From UHGV virus genome UHGV-1352852: a stretch of DNA of 44,165 nt. The stretch is one strand, 5' to 3'. Below, piece after piece: positions 4,377 through 32,425 of this stretch. A program made the translations under genes and the position numbers. A model generated the notes under the pieces. That model was not told where the DNA came from. It ran no database searches and saw only the letters and a list, made by a program, of their open reading frames with translations. Source of the stretch: a virus. Every line of letters begins with the position of its first letter. The stretch's first letter is position 1.

Positions 4377-4405
4377 TTGCACACCCCAATATAATAGGGT
4401 ACTAT
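4377..4405 (+). promoter_or_regulatory. sigma70-like promoter TTGCAC-N17-TACTAT with embedded AATAG-N4-CTATT palindrome
   Basis: Member of a repeated promoter family (see findings); located ~30 nt upstream of the 4434 start codon. Confidence 0.5.
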
Positions 4406-4433
4406 TCACCTGTAACCTACTGAGGAAATAATT

Positions 4434-4760
4434 ATGCGTAAATTAGTATTAGCTCTGGGGTTTATGTCTTTTGCCGCTTTTGGGTCTCCGTGCGAACAGG
4501 TATTTAGTGAATCTGTTCTTATGACTTCTGGTGTTCTCGATAAAGCCGACCCTACTATTGTAAAGGCATTTAAGGACTCTACCGTTCGCGAGTGTGAGGC
4601 CGCTGTAGAGGTTGGTAAATCGGGCCTACCCCCGCAGGCCGTAACCTACACAGTGATACGTTCGGTAGAGAAAAACGGAGATGCTTTCTATAGCCTACTG
4701 ACAGCCACCCGTCTGCAAATGGTAATGACAGGGTGGGCGATAGGCGCAGAAAGTAAATAG
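4434..4760 (+). CDS. small secreted protein (Sec signal peptide), moron
   Basis: N-terminus MRKLVLALGFMSFAAFG is a typical signal peptide; GAGGA RBS; plus-strand gene inserted within the minus-strand tail module. Confidence 0.6.
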   Translation: MRKLVLALGFMSFAAFGSPCEQVFSESVLMTSGVLDKADPTIVKAFKDSTVRECEAAVEVGKSGLPPQAVTYTVIRSVEKNGDAFYSLLTATRLQMVMTGWAIGAESK

Positions 4761-4825
4761 TCGCCTTTATTTAAAGGAATGCACTGTGGTTAAATAGGAC
4801 AAATCCTAAACACGAGGAAGTAAGC

Positions 4826-5956
4826 ATGGCCCAGAAGAAAATAACCGACGAACAGTTACAGGAAGAATTGAACGCCGGGATGAAGATTATTGATATCGCC
4901 CGTAAATACGGCATCTCAGACCGCGTTATTCGTATCCGTAAAGCGAAGCTGGCTAAGAAAGGTGTAGGCCACGGGCGCGACGTTAGTCACCTTGTGCCGG
5001 ACGGCTACAAGATTAAAGGCACGTCGTCCCTGGTGGACGAGTTCGGCAACACTAAGTTGCAATGGGTTAAGACTGACACCGATGCTGAACGTCAGGTCGA
5101 GTTGATGAAAGCCGTAATTGAAGGCATGAAGTCAGAGATTACACCTGTTGCGCCTGTTAAAGCGACTCGCGCCAAACGCGACGATAAACTTCTCAATCTT
5201 TACACTGTGTCTGATTTCCATCTCGGTATGCTTGCATGGGCAGACGAGAGCGGCGACGACTGGGACATGAAGATTGCAGAAGACCTGTTCTCTCGATGGT
5301 TCGACGCGGCGTTTCAGAAAGCACCGGACGCGGGAACAGGAGTTATTAATCTGCTAGGAGACTTCGCGCACTTCGATAGTCTTGATGCCGTTACCCCTGA
5401 GTCGCGTCATGTGTTAGACGCCGATACTCGCTATCAGAAACTAGTTCGCTACATGATTCGTATGGTGCGTCGTGTTGTCGATATGGCGCTTGTTAAACAT
5501 CACACAGTCAAACTCTTAATAGTTCAAGGTAACCACGACCCTGTAGGCTCTGTATGGCTCGCCGAAATGTTCACGGTTTTATACTCAAACGACAGCCGAG
5601 TGATTGTCGATACGTCACCAGACGTTTACAAGATGGTGCAACACGGCAAAACGACGTTGTTCTTTCACCACGGGCATAAATCGCGCTTCGATGCTATCGA
5701 ACCGGTTATGATTGCCAAGTTCCGCAAAGCGTTCGGCGAGAGTGTTTACAGCTACGCCCACGTAGGCCATCTGCACCACCAGAAGATTGTAGAAAGCCGT
5801 AACATGGTTGTTGAGCAACACCGCACCTTAGCGGCTAAAGACGCCTACGCCTCCCGCGGCGGATGGATGTCGGGCCGCAGTGCTAATGTAATTACTTATA
5901 GCGCCGAATATGGTGAGGTCGCACGTTTAACTATTTCACCGGAGATGCTGGGATGA
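4826..5956 (+). CDS. HTH domain fused to a calcineurin-like metallophosphoesterase
   Basis: N-terminal HTH (IIDIARKYGISDRVIRIRKAKL); ordered metallophosphoesterase motifs DFH, GDFAHFD, GNHD, FHHGH, GHLHH; GAGGAAG RBS. Confidence 0.75.
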   Translation: MAQKKITDEQLQEELNAGMKIIDIARKYGISDRVIRIRKAKLAKKGVGHGRDVSHLVPDGYKIKGTSSLVDEFGNTKLQWVKTDTDAERQVELMKAVIEGMKSEITPVAPVKATRAKRDDKLLNLYTVSDFHLGMLAWADESGDDWDMKIAEDLFSRWFDAAFQKAPDAGTGVINLLGDFAHFDSLDAVTPESRHVLDADTRYQKLVRYMIRMVRRVVDMALVKHHTVKLLIVQGNHDPVGSVWLAEMFTVLYSNDSRVIVDTSPDVYKMVQHGKTTLFFHHGHKSRFDAIEPVMIAKFRKAFGESVYSYAHVGHLHHQKIVESRNMVVEQHRTLAAKDAYASRGGWMSGRSANVITYSAEYGEVARLTISPEMLG

Positions 5957-6183
5957 CTTCAAAATACAACCGAACAATGACAAACATTCACGGCAGCACT
6001 ATGACAGTAGACGTTTATGATGTTCTCCGTGCTTTCGATATCCGTGACCCGGCGCTACAGCACGCATTGAAGAAGCTGTTGTGTATGGGCCTGCGCGGTC
6101 ACAAGGATACCGGAACAGACTTAGCGGAAGCAATTGAAAGTCTGGAGAAGTTACGGGAATACCGAAGCAATATTGATGAGTAA
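5953..6183 (+). CDS. small helical phage protein (possibly DUF3310-like, from recollection)
   Basis: 76-aa ORF whose start overlaps the preceding stop (ATGA); segment VDVYDVLRAFDIRDPALQHALKKLLCMGLRG resembles small lambdoid-phage proteins. Confidence 0.45.
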   Translation: MTSKYNRTMTNIHGSTMTVDVYDVLRAFDIRDPALQHALKKLLCMGLRGHKDTGTDLAEAIESLEKLREYRSNIDE

Positions 6184-6210
6184 GAAAAGGCCCCTTTCGG
6201 GGCCTTAGTT
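6184..6210. terminator. bidirectional rho-independent terminator
   Basis: GC hairpin AGGCCCCTTTCGGGGCCT with A-run on one side and T-rich tract on the other; separates the plus-strand cassette from the convergent major tail gene. Confidence 0.6.
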
Positions 6211-7377
6211 TTATGCGTAGGTGATACGCTGAATAACAATAGACGACTGGTACTGGTTGCCAGTAGCCTGGCCTTCAATAGACTGAGTGATTGACTCAGG
6301 TCCGCCAATCTCAGGTGTAACCGCTGTCAGTTCCGCACGTTTTAAACTGAAAGACATAGCCCCGTTTACCCCCGCCAGAATAGAGTTAATCTCTACCTGC
6401 TGTTCGTTGATAAACTTCTGAATCATAGCCATGTCGTACAGCTTACCAGAGATAGAGAAGGTGTTAGCCGCGCGGCTACGCTCCACAAACGCCACGTTAG
6501 TGTTGCCGAGTTCGAACTGAGCGGACGCGCTGTTGTCGTTGGTGATGGCCAGGCTGTCGCAGCGCAACGGTGTTGAGCCATCGAACACAGAAACGTCAAC
6601 CGAAGAGAACGGCTCGTCACCAAACGTGACAGAGGAGAAATCAGAACCTGTCGGCTGCGTGGCGAGAATCTCCTGACTGCGACCGATGAACGGGAAGCTG
6701 CCAGTTACCATCGCGTTAACGGCCTGCTCAATAGTGAAGCCAGAAACTTCCACGCCTTTGGTCAGCGTGTACGCGTCGGCCCCACCACACTGGCCTTTGT
6801 ACCAGGTGAGAATAGAGAACGTCTTACACTGGCTACCGGTTTCCAGCTTATCGCCAGTTTTAGCCGCAGTAGTGGCGGTCTCAGTGGTCAGAGTATGTTG
6901 GGTACCAGCACCGGTGACAACTGTCGCACTTACCTCGGTTACGATAAACGGTTTGGCGTTATCGCCAGTTAAATCGGTGAACGCGATTAAGTCCCCCACT
7001 TCAACGCCGTCAGAAATAAAGCTACCTTCTGCACGGGTGAATGTCTTTCCCGCCGGTGCGACGGTAATAGACAGCCCGGACAGAGAAACGCCGGATTGCC
7101 ACGTAGAGCCTAAAGCCCCGGCTAACCAGTCGTCCTGGCTTTTCGAGCTAAGCTCAATAGCGTATTCTCCGCTAACCTGCTTGTTGCCGGTGCGGATGGA
7201 TGTAGTTTCACGGCTGCCGTCAAGTTCATTGGAGGTCAGCGTGTCGCGGGTAATGGCCGGAACACCGCCCGTATTGCGCAACGGCGACCATACCGGGTTA
7301 TCCGGTGTTACGCCCGGGGTCACTTCCGCCACATAGAATTGCGCGGTATTCGCGCCCTTAAAAGGAGTTGTAGCCAT
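6211..7377 (-). CDS. major tail protein (tube)
   Basis: Track ORF 6211..7383; ATG at 7377 preceded by AAGAGG. Thr/Ser/Gly-rich 388-aa protein positioned before the chaperone pair. Confidence 0.5.
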   Translation of the reverse strand: MATTPFKGANTAQFYVAEVTPGVTPDNPVWSPLRNTGGVPAITRDTLTSNELDGSRETTSIRTGNKQVSGEYAIELSSKSQDDWLAGALGSTWQSGVSLSGLSITVAPAGKTFTRAEGSFISDGVEVGDLIAFTDLTGDNAKPFIVTEVSATVVTGAGTQHTLTTETATTAAKTGDKLETGSQCKTFSILTWYKGQCGGADAYTLTKGVEVSGFTIEQAVNAMVTGSFPFIGRSQEILATQPTGSDFSSVTFGDEPFSSVDVSVFDGSTPLRCDSLAITNDNSASAQFELGNTNVAFVERSRAANTFSISGKLYDMAMIQKFINEQQVEINSILAGVNGAMSFSLKRAELTAVTPEIGGPESITQSIEGQATGNQYQSSIVIQRITYA

Positions 7378-7796: not shown

Positions 7797-8188
7797 TTCA
7801 CCTTGTTGGCTTCTTCATTAATGAGTTGCTGGAAACGCGATATATTAGTCCTGACAACCCCGGCTGGCGCCTGTTGTGACCAACCATACTCCAGCCGTTG
7901 TGCATACGGCAGGTTATTTGTCAGCGTAAACTCGTGCCAGTCAGCGGCTTTCAGCACGAAACTTGTAGCGTTTCCAGTAGCTATGTTCCCTGATTTATCC
8001 GTTGCATCTGTAACTCCGGGAGCAGGAGTACCGCCGGATGCCATCCAGTTCATACGGAATCGGCCTGTATCTACCGGACTCGCCTTTATGATAGCGGAAA
8101 ACAACTTGATAGACACCTGACGCATCACCTTCTCGGGATTCTTCTTCGCCTTTTCGACGAACTTAGAGACATCAAGCGCGAAACTCAT
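7793..8188 (-). CDS. head-tail joining protein
   Basis: 131-aa ORF with AGGTGA RBS; start/stop overlaps with neighbours. Confidence 0.4.
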   Translation of the reverse strand: MSFALDVSKFVEKAKKNPEKVMRQVSIKLFSAIIKASPVDTGRFRMNWMASGGTPAPGVTDATDKSGNIATGNATSFVLKAADWHEFTLTNNLPYAQRLEYGWSQQAPAGVVRTNISRFQQLINEEANKVK

Positions 8189-8544
8189 TTTCTCACCTGA
8201 ATAAAGTAGGCTACGACATCACCATTAACCATCTTCTTCTCGATGGCTACGACAGACCATTGCCCGCCGTCAAATTGCACCTTGTCTTCCATCTTCGGAA
8301 CGACACTGCAATCGGCTTTAACAATCACGTCACCGGCCTGAATCGTCGTACCGTTTACCCGTTCCACGTTTACCGGAACCGGGACGGCATTCAACGGCAG
8401 CACTTCATCATCAGACCAGACGTACTCACCGAGAACTTCATCCCACACTTTCGAGCCGGAACGAATTAGAGATACTGTGCTGCCGAATTTGGTTAGCAGG
8501 CGTGTACCAACGCCTTGCATACGTTTACTGAAAGCTGTGCTCAT
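8185..8544 (-). CDS. head-tail joining protein
   Basis: Track ORF 8185..8625; internal ATG at 8544 (MSTAFSK...) has an AAGAGGTG RBS. Confidence 0.4.
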   Translation of the reverse strand: MSTAFSKRMQGVGTRLLTKFGSTVSLIRSGSKVWDEVLGEYVWSDDEVLPLNAVPVPVNVERVNGTTIQAGDVIVKADCSVVPKMEDKVQFDGGQWSVVAIEKKMVNGDVVAYFIQVRK

Positions 8545-13180: not shown

Positions 13181-13209
13181 TTGCGCACACCAACATAACA
13201 GGGTACTAT
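13181..13209 (+). promoter_or_regulatory. sigma70-like promoter TTGCGC-N17-TACTAT with embedded palindrome
   Basis: Near-identical to the copies at 4377 and 16229; ~28 nt upstream of the 13237 start. Confidence 0.5.
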
Positions 13210-13236
13210 TCAGTTAATTTAAACAGGAGATGAAAA

Positions 13237-13758
13237 ATGGTTACTACAGTAATTACTTTCCCTGCGTATGTAGGGGCGAAAATATGCAGGGCTAAAAATG
13301 ATGTTCGCTACTATTTGAACGCTTTTTACATAGACCCTGAAGGATTGATAGTGTCTACGGACGGTCATAGATTGTTCTGCGACAATGTGAAGACCAACGT
13401 TGAGAAAGGGACTCTCATAGACATCAAAGGGAGAGAGCCTTCTAAATTTAACTACGCGGAGGTAAACCACGACAACGGCAGTGTATCTTTCTATGACGAT
13501 AATCGTGCGCTTATATGTACACTTCCGGTAGATGTTGTAGAAGGAAACTTTCCTGACTGGAGACGCGTGGCGCACATCACACCGGGTGTTGTCGATAGTA
13601 TAGGGTTCACCCTGCGTTATTTGGCAGACGCGTACAAGATTTCTAAGGCATACAAAAATGAAATTGCTCGTTTCGATTTCCAGGACCAAACCAGAGGATG
13701 TAAAATACTATTTTCAAACACGGCCTTTATGGTGTTAATGCCTGCGCGATTTAAATAA
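13237..13758 (+). CDS. beta sliding clamp (DnaN)-derived mini-protein
   Basis: Carries DnaN hallmark motifs in order: DVRYYLN, TDGHRL, GNFPDWRRV, IGFTLRYLADA and C-terminal FMVLMPARF (compare E. coli DnaN DVRYYLNG, TDGHRL, GRFPDYRRV, IGFNVSYVLDV, YVVMPMRL). AGGAGA RBS; terminator downstream. Confidence 0.7.
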   Translation: MVTTVITFPAYVGAKICRAKNDVRYYLNAFYIDPEGLIVSTDGHRLFCDNVKTNVEKGTLIDIKGREPSKFNYAEVNHDNGSVSFYDDNRALICTLPVDVVEGNFPDWRRVAHITPGVVDSIGFTLRYLADAYKISKAYKNEIARFDFQDQTRGCKILFSNTAFMVLMPARFK

Positions 13759-13761
13759 AAC

Positions 13762-13785
13762 TAGGGCCCCATACGGGGCCTTTTA
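13762..13785 (+). terminator. rho-independent terminator
   Basis: Hairpin GGGCCCCATACGGGGCC followed by TTTT, directly after the DnaN-like gene. Confidence 0.55.
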
Positions 13786-14247: not shown

Positions 14248-16184
14248 TATTCCCCTTTCAGATAATCAGCAACACGTTTATCGAGTTCCGCCATCTGCTT
14301 AAGCGTGAGCGGACGCCCAAAACCATCTACAGATATTACGCGAAACTCCTCTGGTGATATACCGCTGTTACGGAAAATCTTACCGCGAACAGGGCCGAGC
14401 GCCTGGTCCTGAAACCATGCGGGCTGTTGTTTAAGGAACTCGTAGTAGGTTGTGTCCGCGCTTACCTGAGTACCGCCGTCCGCCCCGCGTGCCGCGCGTT
14501 TTGCGCCTTTATCAAGGAAGTCGAACTCCGAGCTAATCACCGGGGCCGTGGTACTTCTGCAATTCGGATGCGCTGGCGGCATCGGCCCTTTTCCAATTTC
14601 CCACGTCATTCCGTCTCTGGCCCTGCAATTCTTGACTATCGCACTACCTGCTGTATAATATCCTTGACTACTAGAGAGGGTATAAACATGGCACGTTCTA
14701 AACTCGACGCTTATGCGGATGATATTTGTTCTTTGTACCGAGATGGCACTCCCGCCAGCATCATAGCCAAGAATTACGGCGTCACTACCACCACGGTAAC
14801 AACATTTCTCAAGAAGCTCGGACTCATGCATGATCGACCCCGTGGTTGGGTTTCTAACGACACCATTTTGAATCAAAAAAGGGCTATAGAATTGTTCGAG
14901 TCCGGCGTCCCGCCTATTGAGTGCATAAGAAGGACCCAAGTAAGCAAAACAGTTTTCTATTCTATGGTCAAAACACTTGGCCTCGCTAAGCGCGGGCACA
15001 CTCACAGGACATTCACCCCGGAGGAGAAAATCGCCAGAGCTATCGTCCGACAGCAAAGCGGCGCTATGAATAAGACTGAAACCCTCGCTTTTGAATTGTT
15101 TAATTCCGCTGGCGTGGACGTAGTTCCGCAGTTTGCAATCGGCCCGTACAATGTCGATTTTGCCATTGAGTCCCACTCCATCGCCATAGAAATCTGTTGC
15201 CGCGGGACTCGTGCTTACCATTTTCCTGATGGGGAAATCAGCGAGCGTATTAAAAATATAATCCGCTCTGGCTGGCATGTTTATGTTCTTCACTGTTTCG
15301 AGCACAGTCACTTTGTCAACAGTGGTATACAAGACATGCTTAGTTGGATCGAGTTCATCAAGCGGAGTCCATCCGTATTGCGTGAGTACAGGGTGTTTCG
15401 GGGTGCCACTGAACTTCTCGCCGTTGGAAAGTTCGATGGTAAAGATTTTTCCTGAATAGAGTCCGCGCATTACCGCGTCCATCCCCGCGATGGGCGCTAA
15501 TTCTGTTTCAGCCGTGAAACACGTTGTACTGGTACGGCTGTCCAGCGTTGACACCCACTCGTATTTCTCGATGATGTCGTCGTTCTGGCGGTACGTCTCG
15601 TTACGGGCTTCGTTGGATACGTGAGCCAGCGCCGTACGTATTACGGTAGCGGCGTTACGCTCAGAGATGTCGGCCAGTCCGCCAGCGCCTACAACATTCT
15701 TAACAATCTGCCGTGTGGTTTGACCCTGAACAAAGCCCATCTTAACGCCAGTTACCAGGCGCGATACTTCTGTTTCACCCCAGCCACCCATCAGCTTAGT
15801 GAAATCTACTGGCTTGTCGCTTAACGACAGAGGCTGAAACTCGGCAGCGGCCCACACCTGTTCGGCAGTAGGCGTAACAAATTCAGCGTTGACGTTGGCC
15901 GTGAGTGTCTTTACATTCCACTCAGCCTCATACGCCGCCAGGTCCTTAAGGTCTTCTGTCAGCTTTGTTTGCCAGTCACCCGTAAGTCCTGTCAGTGCTT
16001 CTTCTAGGTCGCGTAACAATTTATTCAGTCGCGCAGTGCTTCGCCCGTCGTCACCGAATAACAGCACCTGCCGTTTGATTTCATCCCGCATCTCCTGAAT
16101 GAACGGTGTGAGGTCTTTCACTTCGCCGGATGCGGTGCGTTGCAGCCATATCTGGTGGCTGATTAGGGATGTAAGTAAGCTCAT
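14247..16184 (-). CDS. head morphogenesis protein (Mu F / SPP1 gp7-like), intein-containing
   Basis: Track ORF 14247..16241; ATG at 16184 (MSLLTSL) with GGAGGG RBS. C-terminal PPAHPNCRS motif typical of the Mu F family; central ~300-aa insertion with intein motifs. Confidence 0.7.
   Translation of the reverse strand: MSLLTSLISHQIWLQRTASGEVKDLTPFIQEMRDEIKRQVLLFGDDGRSTARLNKLLRDLEEALTGLTGDWQTKLTEDLKDLAAYEAEWNVKTLTANVNAEFVTPTAEQVWAAAEFQPLSLSDKPVDFTKLMGGWGETEVSRLVTGVKMGFVQGQTTRQIVKNVVGAGGLADISERNAATVIRTALAHVSNEARNETYRQNDDIIEKYEWVSTLDSRTSTTCFTAETELAPIAGMDAVMRGLYSGKIFTIELSNGEKFSGTPKHPVLTQYGWTPLDELDPTKHVLYTTVDKVTVLETVKNINMPARADYIFNTLADFPIRKMVSTSPAATDFYGDGVGLNGKIDIVRADCKLRNYVHASGIKQFKSEGFSLIHSAALLSDDSSGDFLLRGECPVSVPALSEAKCFDHRIENCFAYLGPSYALNRRDAGLEQFYSPFLIQNGVVRNPTTGSIMHESELLEKCCYRGGSDAVILGYDAGGSAISVQRTNIIRISVEFRTCHVYTLSSSQGYYTAGSAIVKNCRARDGMTWEIGKGPMPPAHPNCRSTTAPVISSEFDFLDKGAKRAARGADGGTQVSADTTYYEFLKQQPAWFQDQALGPVRGKIFRNSGISPEEFRVISVDGFGRPLTLKQMAELDKRVADYLKGE
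14632..14659 (+). promoter_or_regulatory. sigma70 promoter TTGACT-N16-TATAAT for the intein-embedded endonuclease gene
   Basis: Near-consensus -35 and -10 hexamers read directly; GAGAGGG RBS follows ~8 nt before the ATG at 14688. Confidence 0.55.
14688..15455 (+). CDS. homing endonuclease-like protein: two HTH motifs + Vsr-like (DUF559) PD-(D/E)XK nuclease domain
   Basis: Internal ATG of track ORF 14427..15455. HTH segments SIIAKNYGVTTTTVTTFLKKLGL and IECIRRTQVSKTVFYSMVKTLGL; C-terminal core YNVDFAIESHSIAIEI...GWHVYVL; encoded antisense within the intein. Confidence 0.6.
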   Translation: MARSKLDAYADDICSLYRDGTPASIIAKNYGVTTTTVTTFLKKLGLMHDRPRGWVSNDTILNQKRAIELFESGVPPIECIRRTQVSKTVFYSMVKTLGLAKRGHTHRTFTPEEKIARAIVRQQSGAMNKTETLAFELFNSAGVDVVPQFAIGPYNVDFAIESHSIAIEICCRGTRAYHFPDGEISERIKNIIRSGWHVYVLHCFEHSHFVNSGIQDMLSWIEFIKRSPSVLREYRVFRGATELLAVGKFDGKDFS

Positions 16185-16228
16185 ATGCCCTCCTGTAGTA
16201 TCGCCAGTGTAACGCATAAAAATAATAT

Positions 16229-16257
16229 TTGCAGACACCAATATAATAGGGTACTAT
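16229..16257 (+). promoter_or_regulatory. sigma70-like promoter TTGCAG-N17-TACTAT with embedded palindrome
   Basis: Third near-identical copy; leader shares TATCGAAACGAGA with the copy at 26613. Confidence 0.5.
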
Positions 16258-16291
16258 TCAGCTATCGAAACGAGAGATAAGGGATTTAAAG

Positions 16292-16504
16292 ATGAAAGAA
16301 TTAATTATCGCGGTATTGACGACACTGGCAGTTTCACTGGTAATTGCTGCTGGTGTACGTAGCTTAGATAAACACGGGTGTGAGAACTACGGAGATGTCA
16401 CAGGCAGAGAGGTAATGTATAGTTACACAACTTGTTATGTGAAAACTGATAGAGGTTTTATCCCTCGTGAAGAACTTAATTTCAGAGCAGCGACACATGA
16501 ATAA
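16292..16504 (+). CDS. small membrane-anchored protein, moron
   Basis: 70 aa; N-terminal TM segment LIIAVLTTLAVSLVIAAGV then a short Cys-containing domain; AAGGGA RBS; terminator downstream. Confidence 0.5.
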   Translation: MKELIIAVLTTLAVSLVIAAGVRSLDKHGCENYGDVTGREVMYSYTTCYVKTDRGFIPREELNFRAATHE

Positions 16505-16505
16505 A

Positions 16506-16532
16506 ACTAAGGCCCCGAAAGGGGCCTTTTTC
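16506..16532. terminator. bidirectional rho-independent terminator
   Basis: Hairpin AGGCCCCGAAAGGGGCCT flanked by an A-run and TTTTT; lies between the convergent 16292 gene and the portal gene. Confidence 0.55.
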
Positions 16533-16533
16533 T

Positions 16534-18003
16534 TTACTCCTGTTGCTGCGCCGACTGCGGAATCTCCCCCGCCGCCTGAGTGACAGCGCCTAACGGCAGT
16601 GGTGCATCCTCGATAGCGTTCTGAATGTCCTCGTCAGTCCAGTCAGTTACACCAGCCTTACGCAATGCCGCGTAGTAAGCAGTAGCGGGTAACAGGCCGG
16701 CGTTAATATCCGCCATCCACTGTGCGCGGTCCTGAGCAGTCATAGGTTGCAAGAAGAACTCCATATTCAGCTTGAACTCAATCTCTGTGTCTTCCCGCAG
16801 TCCCAGCATCGCCGCTACCCAGCGCAACGCATCGGTATACGCCATACTTACGTTACGTGCGATTGTTGCCATAACGGACGTATCCGCCCCGCGTTGCAGA
16901 CGGGCAGATTCAGCGGTGATTTGCTGCGTCGGGGTGATAAGCTGCGCACCAATCTGAATGGCCTGGTTCTCTTTATCCAGCATATTCTGTTTAGCGAGGT
17001 TGTTCTCCTCCGCCTGAACCAGAAACGCATTGCCGCCGTAACCGATGTTATGACCCGAGCGCGACCCCATGCGTACGCCGTGAGGGTTGGCTTCTTTCCA
17101 CTGTTCCATGCTCATGTTCTCGCCCGGGGCGATGAACAGAGTAGGCTGACCTACGACGAAACTGGATTCCTCATTGTCCGCACTGTTGCGGAAATGCCCG
17201 ATATTAAGCTCAGCCAACGGCAGCAAAGGTGCGTCGTCAATGGTTGCGTCATTGTTGCTTGCCCCAATAAAAGTGAACGGTATTTTACCGCGTAACTGTT
17301 CGCCAAGTTCCGGGAAGATTTCGATTACTTCATCCTGAGCACCGCCTTCAGCATCGAAGCGGTAAATGCGCTGACGGTAACGGCCTTCAATCAAATCGAG
17401 AACACGGTATTGCTCCCCGAACTTTGTTTCAAACTCTGCGCCTGGTTCTGAGTATTCCCACACCTCGCGCAATACGACCATCGTCACACGGTTCACTGAG
17501 CCGACGCGGGTCAGCCGCCAGTTGATGATGTTCTCTGCAGTGTAGAATGCAATGACCGGGTTTAATAGCCCCGCGTTCTGTTCTGCCGCCGTTGCTGCTG
17601 CTGTCTCCGGCGCGTCCACCAGCAGCCCCCCACGGCCCACCGAGTCAATCTCCATCAAAGAATCCTGAGCGTGCTGCCACAGCCCGACACCGGAACCGTC
17701 GGCATTACGCAGCAGGTACTCCATTTCAGGAGGTATAATCTGCTCTGGGTCTTTGCGCATGACGCTACCAACCATCCCGGCCAGGGTACGTTTGGTGAAG
17801 TTGTAGCAGATAGCGCCGTTCTCGTACTCTTCCTGCCGTTGGGCCGCATAGGTCGGGTCAGGTTCGTTCTTCCCAACGTTACGCAGATAGCGAATAAGGT
17901 CGCCCTCCAGCGCATGGCGTACCTTCTGCCATTTATCGAAGTGATGCAGCCATTCCCGGTGTTTAGTCTTAACACCCTGATTCTGACCGTTCATAGTTAA
18001 CAT
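16534..18003 (-). CDS. portal protein
   Basis: 489-aa ORF immediately downstream of the large terminase; AAGAGGA RBS. Confidence 0.8.
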   Translation of the reverse strand: MLTMNGQNQGVKTKHREWLHHFDKWQKVRHALEGDLIRYLRNVGKNEPDPTYAAQRQEEYENGAICYNFTKRTLAGMVGSVMRKDPEQIIPPEMEYLLRNADGSGVGLWQHAQDSLMEIDSVGRGGLLVDAPETAAATAAEQNAGLLNPVIAFYTAENIINWRLTRVGSVNRVTMVVLREVWEYSEPGAEFETKFGEQYRVLDLIEGRYRQRIYRFDAEGGAQDEVIEIFPELGEQLRGKIPFTFIGASNNDATIDDAPLLPLAELNIGHFRNSADNEESSFVVGQPTLFIAPGENMSMEQWKEANPHGVRMGSRSGHNIGYGGNAFLVQAEENNLAKQNMLDKENQAIQIGAQLITPTQQITAESARLQRGADTSVMATIARNVSMAYTDALRWVAAMLGLREDTEIEFKLNMEFFLQPMTAQDRAQWMADINAGLLPATAYYAALRKAGVTDWTDEDIQNAIEDAPLPLGAVTQAAGEIPQSAQQQE

Positions 18004-24993: not shown

Positions 24994-25188
24994 TGCGCAA
25001 CCTCATACAAAGTTTCCGGGTAACCCCATGTTGCTTTAGCGACAAGATTATTACCGCTATCTATGTAGATAGACTCTGGCGTACCCGCATTAATAACCAT
25101 GTGATACATAAGACCTTCTACTGTGCTGAAAAACTCATCTTTAGTTACTTCTTTCATCTTCCGTCTCTCCTCTCGTTTGTGTAAATGA

Positions 25189-32396: not shown

Positions 32397-32425
32397 TTGA
32401 CACCTGAATAGTAAGCTATTATAGT
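32397..32425 (+). promoter_or_regulatory. sigma70 promoter TTGACA-N17-TATAGT with AATAG-N4-CTATT palindrome in the spacer
   Basis: Same arrangement as at 30245; upstream of the 32479 gene. Confidence 0.5.

Follow-up and report, generated by a model that had tools for sequence, protein, structure and literature searches.

A 70-residue gene in an antisense cassette of a Kagunavirus-like phage and its widespread, unnamed family of predicted membrane proteins

In the 44,165-nucleotide stretch of viral DNA analysed here (UHGV virus genome UHGV-1352852, hereafter the window), a 70-amino-acid (aa) ORF at 16292..16504 is a genuine accessory gene within a self-contained unit comprising a promoter, a ribosome-binding site (RBS), one ORF and a bidirectional terminator. 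Sequence comparison places such units at slots among the structural genes and assigns the product to a family of small predicted membrane proteins; the protein would be a disulfide-bearing effector in the host envelope, and its role may be of the superinfection-exclusion type. Taken as a whole, from accessory gene to exclusion-type role, this statement falls a little short of an even chance in our judgement. In kind the gene is an ordinary phage accessory gene, and the family is sizeable and unnamed.

The gene and its antisense cassette

The elements of the unit and the adjoining portal gene are as follows.

16224..16530, + strand: transferable unit of ~307 bp, the block common to the slot-A cassettes of EC3-1, L009 and L010 (see below)
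16229..16257, + strand: sigma-70-type family promoter, with -35 TTGCAG at 16229..16234, a 17-nt spacer and -10 TACTAT at 16252..16257
16279..16283, + strand: Shine-Dalgarno-like AAGGG, 8 nt 5' of the ATG, read from the sequence
16292..16504, + strand: 70-aa ORF, translation MKELIIAVLTTLAVSLVIAAGVRSLDKHGCENYGDVTGREVMYSYTTCYVKTDRGFIPREELNFRAATHE
16301..16357, + strand: codons of the transmembrane (TM) helix, approximately residues 4-22
16379..16381 and 16433..16435, + strand: codons of Cys30 and Cys48
16509..16533, both strands: bidirectional intrinsic terminator with an 8-bp GC-rich stem, a GAAA loop and U-runs, the hairpin occupying 16509..16528
16534..18003, - strand: portal gene (DUF4055 / phrog_145)

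The first-pass annotation had placed the gene between portal and head-morphogenesis genes and had described it as transcribed against both. Pfam and PHROGs matches to the flanking genes bore this out: the flank opposite the portal gene is a Mu-F-like head-morphogenesis gene (Phage_Mu_F / phrog_241), and the 70-aa ORF, on the + strand, is antisense to both neighbours, the late genes running on the - strand. The same annotation had called the unit a moron, and this claim was strengthened by mobility, with an independent promoter-ORF-terminator cassette lying antisense inside the late operon here and occupying another slot in phage EC3-1 and in two IMG/VR contigs. As judged from sequence elements, the gene is dispensable to the flanking operon and is enclosed by its own promoter and its own terminator, and close relatives are polymorphic for its presence or absence with the flanks intact.

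The program-made ORF list gives the Mu-F gene a TTG start at 16241, with which the gene would run into the cassette promoter. The true start is likely the ATG at 16187 (region 16185..16241, - strand), which has an AGGAGGG Shine-Dalgarno sequence and agrees with the start of the EC3-1 orthologue.

The 5' untranslated region of the 70-aa ORF, TATCGAAACGAGAGATAAGG, was also found in other cassettes when 5' untranslated regions were compared. Pairwise pN/pS values among four close nucleotide copies of the gene ranged from 0.10 to 0.28. Rfam and tRNA searches returned no family above threshold and no tRNA accounting for the cassette region; a Histone3 Rfam match at the terminator lay below threshold and is a hairpin artefact.

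Promoter and terminator modules

Both the family promoter and the bidirectional terminator that had been proposed from the letters alone held up. The promoter core ATAGGGTACTATTCA, located at 16246..16260 and including the palindrome AATAG-N4-CTATT, is present in nine copies in the window against 0.12 expected, starting at 4394, 13198 and 16246 on the + strand and at 25186, 25509, 26610, 30209, 30253 and 32405 on the - strand. Approximately 30 nt, TTGCRCACMCCAAYATAAYAGGGTACTATTCA, are held in common among the aligned copies that precede the ORFs at 4434 (+), 13237 (+), 26579 (-) and 25201 (-). A generic sigma-70 scan did not detect the family promoter, TTGCAG and TACTAT matching the consensus at too few positions, so that the promoter was called from its repetition and its position. 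The copies precede clusters of small ORFs, an HTH gene and the three antisense islands described below, and in relatives the slot promoter precedes different cargo genes. The motif had also been found by PHIRE as a repeated 'phage promoter' in the paper on fBC-Eco01 (PMC9825357).

Conservation of the core far exceeds what sigma-70 would need, which suggests that it may also be an operator for a phage regulator. The palindrome AATAG-N4-CTATT overlaps the -10 element. The copy at 32405..32419 (-) has no obvious downstream ORF and points antisense into replication genes.

The terminator abuts the portal stop codon at 16534. Its hairpin, scored on both strands, gave folding energies of -17.2 kcal/mol (+) and -20.9 kcal/mol (-), with z-scores of -3.6 and -4.5, respectively, relative to shuffled sequence, and the + strand has the stronger U-run (UUUUUCUUU; AGUUUUAUU on the - strand). 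Termination would thus probably be efficient for the cassette and leaky for the late operon. The terminator module recurs at 6185..6214 in inverted orientation (30/30 nt), and a similar module lies at 13754..13784.

Cassette slots and exchange of cargo

A 2-kb query around the gene matched approximately 350 records of Guernseyvirinae phages, the best of which were Escherichia Kagunaviruses at 88-91% identity, and by sequence the phage of the window is a Kagunavirus-like virulent siphophage. Three slots were defined: slot A between the spanin and Hoc-like genes, slot B between the portal and Mu-F genes, where the 70-aa gene resides in the window, and slot C, a third antisense island. The occupants of slots A and C in the window are as follows.

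13187..13784, slot A: second antisense cassette, with an ORF at 13237..13758 (+) encoding a 173-aa clamp-like protein
4377..6214, slot C, between tail genes: family promoter and inverted terminator, first gene at 4434..4760 (+)

In EC3-1 and in the IMG/VR contigs L009 and L010, the ~307-bp block lies in slot A, between an Rz-like spanin gene and the Hoc-like gene. The alignments pair L001 3932-4239, L009 4926-5237 and L010 4931-5240 with window positions 16220/16224 to 16528/16530, at 92.6-94.8% identity. Enterobacter phage phiEap-2 likewise carries a homologue (51% protein identity) in the spanin-adjacent slot. Conversely, the slot-A 173-aa ORF of the window is the slot-B gene of fBC-Eco01, with one residue different. 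This protein has weak similarity to beta-clamp domains (phrog_3007, phrog_947) and goes in GenBank under the names 'DNA polymerase III sliding clamp' or 'RusA-like resolvase', and slot B of SHAK7693, Shashou and Sciku holds genes annotated in like manner. Cargo thus appears to have been swapped between slots A and B in the relatives compared with the window.

Slot B carries other cargo in fBC-Eco01, phiWAO78-1, EF2-1, CR01 and L010, and across relatives zero to three unrelated ORFs stand behind an identical promoter: ORFs of 64, 94 or 93 aa, three ORFs in L010, and the hairpin alone in L009. L009 (IMGVR_UViG_3300045988_018079) is ~88-93% identical to the window in aligned blocks and lacks the intein described below; it has the 70-aa cassette in slot A and an empty slot B. 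In slot C, the window product is 108 aa long, carries a signal peptide and contains two Cys (phrog_14165, a function-unassigned family), while fBC-Eco01 and EC3-1 carry an Imm_superinfect (PF14373) gene there; the window itself was found to have no Imm homologue. Slot A of fBC-Eco01 carries a lipoprotein-like ORF.

Alignment of the junctions indicated slot-specific sequence 5' of the -35 element; starting with the promoter core, the sequence either accompanies its cargo or is common among cargos. On this comparison, three slots in the structural region have resident promoter and terminator modules, between which the cargo ORFs are exchanged, because the window cassette and the slot-A 173-aa ORF occupy other slots in relatives. 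We infer that exchange would proceed by short-homology recombination at the promoter and terminator modules. Genes for an exonuclease and for a Gp2.5-like annealing protein are present in the lineage, according to the EC3-1 annotation.

This arrangement resembles the PeSL cassettes of T4-type phages, in which variable ORFs lie between conserved early-promoter and terminator motifs whose short homologies allow modular gene shuffling (Arbiol et al. 2010, PMC2839356; Comeau et al. 2014, PMC4122927). Here, promoter cores of ~30 nt that are near-identical and a terminator of 30 identical nt flank the swapped cargo. The two differ in that other sequences are involved, in a small siphovirus, and in that the cassettes form antisense islands in the late structural operon, whereas PeSL cassettes occupy hyperplastic early regions; recombination is our reading for the present case.

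Protein family, predicted fold and orientation

An exhaustive HMMER search of 1.84 billion representatives returned 161 clusters at E<=1e-3, all of 64-117 aa. By tblastn, identity was 97% in EC3-1 and 51% in phiEap-2, and only one GenBank record exceeded 60% identity; weaker matches (~30-55%) came from Escherichia siphoviruses such as Dhillonvirus EK99P-1 and from approximately 50 Acinetobacter T4-like phages. A word-indexed search added six close variants from metagenomic contigs that reach 44 kb in length. Three PHROGs matched, phrog_26710 (E-value 2.9e-11), phrog_18961 (7.9e-8) and phrog_27356 (1.3e-7), all function-unassigned families. Pfam (E<=0.1), NCBIfam and PADLOC gave no match for the 70-aa protein, the annotated PHROG, NCBIfam and PADLOC models yielded no known defence or anti-defence match, and a sequence-profile search of the PDB returned nothing meaningful. 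Foldseek neighbours in BFVD were all uncharacterised proteins of this type, coming from phiEap-2, 9NA, Titan-X, Proteus PM93 and Saba, Cronobacter A24 and GAP52, Serratia Muldoon and Pectobacterium CBB.

The single N-terminal TM helix and Cys-containing segment of the first description held up: the window protein has one N-terminal hydrophobic segment (mean Kyte-Doolittle hydropathy 2.64 over 19 residues), and C30 and C48 lie after it. A hydrophobic segment (mean above 1.6 over 19 residues) is present in all but one of 157 family members (99%), with a family mean of 2.67. Exactly two Cys follow the TM helix in 150 of the 157, at a spacing of 18-19 residues; C48 is invariant, C30 is at least 90% conserved, and there are no CxxC pairs. 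The family core reads C-x2-Y-x3-TGRE(T/V)-x-Y-x4-5-C(Y/F)VK-x3-G(W/F)-x-P-x2-E, frequently with RAITNE at the end, and the window protein has C-x2-Y-x3-TGREV...CYVK...GFIP..E. With its N-terminal TM helix, this motif and the Cys spacing of 18-19, it belongs to what we term the TGRET/CYVK family.

AlphaFold2, given 148 sequences, predicted a confident fold (pLDDT 93.8) with helices at residues 2-37 and 59-68 and strands at 41-44, 47-52 and 55-58. Helix 2-37 is continuous in the model, spanning the TM and juxtamembrane parts and bearing C30, and strand 47-52 bears C48. The family is, as modelled, a widespread and unnamed set of phage proteins consisting of a TM helix and a mini-domain of ~45 residues, built of an extension of that helix, a three-stranded sheet and a short helix, with two near-invariant Cys. 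An uncleaved signal anchor is favoured, because the predicted helix runs on without a break and there is no conserved A-x-A site.

A Cys pair without CxxC is most simply read as a periplasmic disulfide, which would in turn imply an N-in/C-out orientation; pointers to this are the near-invariance of both Cys and a weak bias in charge. Across the family, K+R density drops from 0.145 on the N side to 0.10 over the 15 residues that follow the helix, and among the long N-terminal extensions several are strongly basic and a few acidic. The opposite topology, N-out/C-in, would make the Cys pair cytoplasmic, for example as an inter-subunit metal site, and would place the target in the cytoplasm or at the inner leaflet. 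The weakness of the charge bias speaks for this orientation, the window protein having MKE N-terminal of the helix and RSLDKH behind it; however, the presence of exactly two conserved Cys with no CxxC, the higher K/R content on the N side and the strongly basic N-extensions argue against it, and we consider it improbable.

Timing and genomic context of homologues

Outside the Guernseyvirinae, the Acj61 homologue lies between regA and gene 43, that of Dhillonvirus EK99P-1 in the early/replication region, and those of lambdoid Serratia prophages and metagenomic phages in the nin region, between replication genes and ninB or near ninG. In the Serratia marcescens prophages L025 and L026, the family member at 8001..8240 sits between a phiTE_015-like gene and ninB. 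Since members also reside in lambdoid prophages on Serratia chromosomes, the family is not confined to virulent phages. By their positions, the homologues of Acj61, EK99P-1 and the nin regions are all at early or delayed-early lytic locations, and none is at a site of lysogen-expressed morons. Early expression is the probable reading for the window gene, given the genes that the promoter copies precede and the placement of homologues among early genes elsewhere; middle or constitutive expression is possible. We looked for a conserved partner gene adjoining the homologues and for an association with lysis cassettes in lambdoid contexts, and found neither.

An intein with an antisense ORF next door

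The Mu-F gene beside the cassette is itself interrupted.

14628..15521, - strand: intein of 298 aa (C...VKN|C) in the Mu-F gene, inserted precisely before a Cys relative to the intein-less EC3-1 allele
14688..15455, + strand: antisense ORF of 255 aa, wholly inside the intein

Homologues of the 255-aa ORF were found at 53%, 45% and 26% identity, the latter two on ~1-kb contigs that are stop-free on the other strand, where they encode Mu-F extein and Hint intein. The model of the 255-aa product has two HTH units and a nuclease domain, for which Foldseek matched the homing endonuclease I-Bth0305I (probability 0.99), a DUF559 protein and Vsr. In 'fractured genes', free-standing Vsr-like endonuclease genes lie between split-intein halves (PMC2677866), and the pairing seen here looks like a contiguous-intein, antisense variant of that arrangement. 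A literature search turned up no account of antisense dual coding within a contiguous intein, and this element may be more unusual than the 70-aa cassette.

Discussion

Several known exclusion proteins were considered as relatives of the 70-aa protein and rejected. An hhalign comparison with the HK97 gp15 / YebO-like exclusion protein gave a probability of 0.2%, and one with T4 Sp (spackle) gave 2.9%. For T4 Imm (PF14373) there was no Pfam match at E<=0.1 and no phrog_1039 match, and hhalign was negative; the 70-aa protein has one hydrophobic segment, and two are reported for T4 Imm. A Cor/Llp-type exclusion lipoprotein was likewise rejected, there being no Cys before residue 30, no L-x-x-C lipobox and no such PHROG match.

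There are nonetheless likenesses of architecture. HK97 gp15 is an inner-membrane moron that confers superinfection exclusion, reviewed in 'The moron comes of age' (PMC3594210). Like the 70-aa protein it is, in the HK97 annotation, a small single-pass membrane protein encoded in an independent promoter-ORF-terminator unit among late structural genes. The two differ in that gp15 is without Cys and is co-oriented with the late genes, whereas the 70-aa cassette is antisense and belongs to a virulent phage. Moreover, gp15 exerts its action from the prophage, HK97 being a temperate phage. With T4 Imm and Sp the 70-aa protein would share small size, an envelope location and early production by a virulent phage; in T4 the two proteins serve to exclude secondary infection. 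The sister cassettes of fBC-Eco01 and EC3-1 place their Imm_superinfect gene behind the same family promoter.

We propose that host RNA polymerase would use the family promoter early in infection and that the protein would insert into the inner membrane in N-in/C-out orientation as an uncleaved signal anchor. A C30-C48 disulfide, made by DsbA, would lock a periplasmic knob against the juxtamembrane helix, and the conserved TGRE/CYVK face would bind an envelope component conserved across Gammaproteobacteria. The envelope of the infected cell might thereby be altered during lytic growth such that later phages would fail at or after DNA entry. The resulting role, of the superinfection-exclusion type and working like T4 Imm/Sp while being unrelated to them, is speculative, and we regard it as possible but doubtful. 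The first-pass annotation had likewise suggested a superinfection-exclusion or host-takeover factor, and its interpretation is supported in part. Early bitopic envelope proteins with known roles in virulent phages mostly serve exclusion or lysis inhibition (T4 Imm, Sp and RI; T5 Llp). We rank an exclusion-type effector first for this reason and because the cassettes of the lineage carry envelope-directed cargo, namely Imm_superinfect, the signal-peptide protein and the lipoprotein-like ORF. Mutual exclusivity of the 70-aa gene and Imm_superinfect was considered and rejected: EC3-1 carries both, and the two are therefore not simple substitutes. A search of the literature found no functional data on small membrane proteins of Guernseyvirinae or on any family member, and the motifs TGRET, TGREV, CYVK and CFVK were absent from the text supplementary files of the paper on the Gnarl accessory-gene screen.

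Against phage-specific exclusion stands the occurrence of the family in sipho-, myo- and podoviruses with unrelated injection machinery, which a conserved host target fits better than does exclusion of the classical, phage-specific kind. The explanation that we place second, and consider unlikely, takes this further: the protein would be a host-takeover effector whose periplasmic knob inhibits a conserved envelope machine, such as the divisome, peptidoglycan synthesis, secretion or a sensor kinase, and the phage would gain from halted host growth or signalling rather than from exclusion. Small bitopic proteins are capable of such effects, as SPO1 gp56 blocks cell division and MgrB inhibits PhoQ. 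Unrelated virions and hosts ranging from Enterobacterales to Acinetobacter, the placement of the family with early and replication genes and the conserved polar TGRE/CYVK face are all consistent with takeover. However, the Pfam, NCBIfam and PDB profile searches gave no homology or fold match to a known inhibitor, and the gene is patchy and dispensable in Kagunaviruses, as the single GenBank record above 60% identity illustrates.

Somewhat less probable still is a counter-defence factor acting against membrane-associated host immunity or abortive infection. The gene is accessory, horizontally shuffled hot-spot cargo, as is typical of anti-defence genes, and in one Serratia prophage an Acb2/Tad1-like gene lies ~5 kb downstream, with a Lar-like gene near the family member in L016. 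Yet there is no PADLOC or known anti-defence similarity and no conserved neighbour, and a periplasmic disulfide domain would be unusual for an inhibitor of cytoplasmic sensors. A regulator of lysis timing, whether an antiholin, an RI-like protein or a modulator of spanins, strikes us as very unlikely. The bitopic topology would suit it and the cassette abuts spanin genes in four Guernseyvirinae genomes, but there it lies on the opposite strand from the spanins, in the window the lysis genes are remote from it, the other contexts have no lysis association, and two holin-like genes, an endolysin and spanins are already present in the lineage. Finally, that the ORF is spurious and the region regulatory DNA or a non-coding RNA between late genes, as its shortness and the lack of cargo in this slot in some relatives might suggest, is effectively refuted by the 161 homologous clusters that share the motif, by purifying selection and by the confident fold; an RBS, promoter and terminator in register and the lack of an Rfam match above threshold also speak against it.

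In a broader reading, the TGRET/CYVK proteins may constitute a new and widespread class of early phage envelope effectors, each with a disulfide-locked periplasmic knob, held by a membrane anchor and directed at one envelope target conserved in Gammaproteobacteria. Their users would be virulent sipho-, myo- and podoviruses and lambdoid phages in lytic growth, and in small siphoviruses the genes would be traded, by short-homology recombination, between antisense promoter/terminator slots lying within the late operon. As a joint proposal we hold this tentatively, and on balance it is rather more apt to fail than to stand. If a single conserved envelope target were indeed shared, a 45-residue domain binding it would offer a small tool with which to probe or inhibit a Gram-negative envelope process, and the recurrence of an unannotated gene in therapeutic-candidate phages (Kagunavirus, Dhillonvirus and Acinetobacter T4-likes) would be explained. 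The three resident docking sites are also natural insertion points for the engineering of these small siphoviruses, because they tolerate zero to three foreign ORFs.
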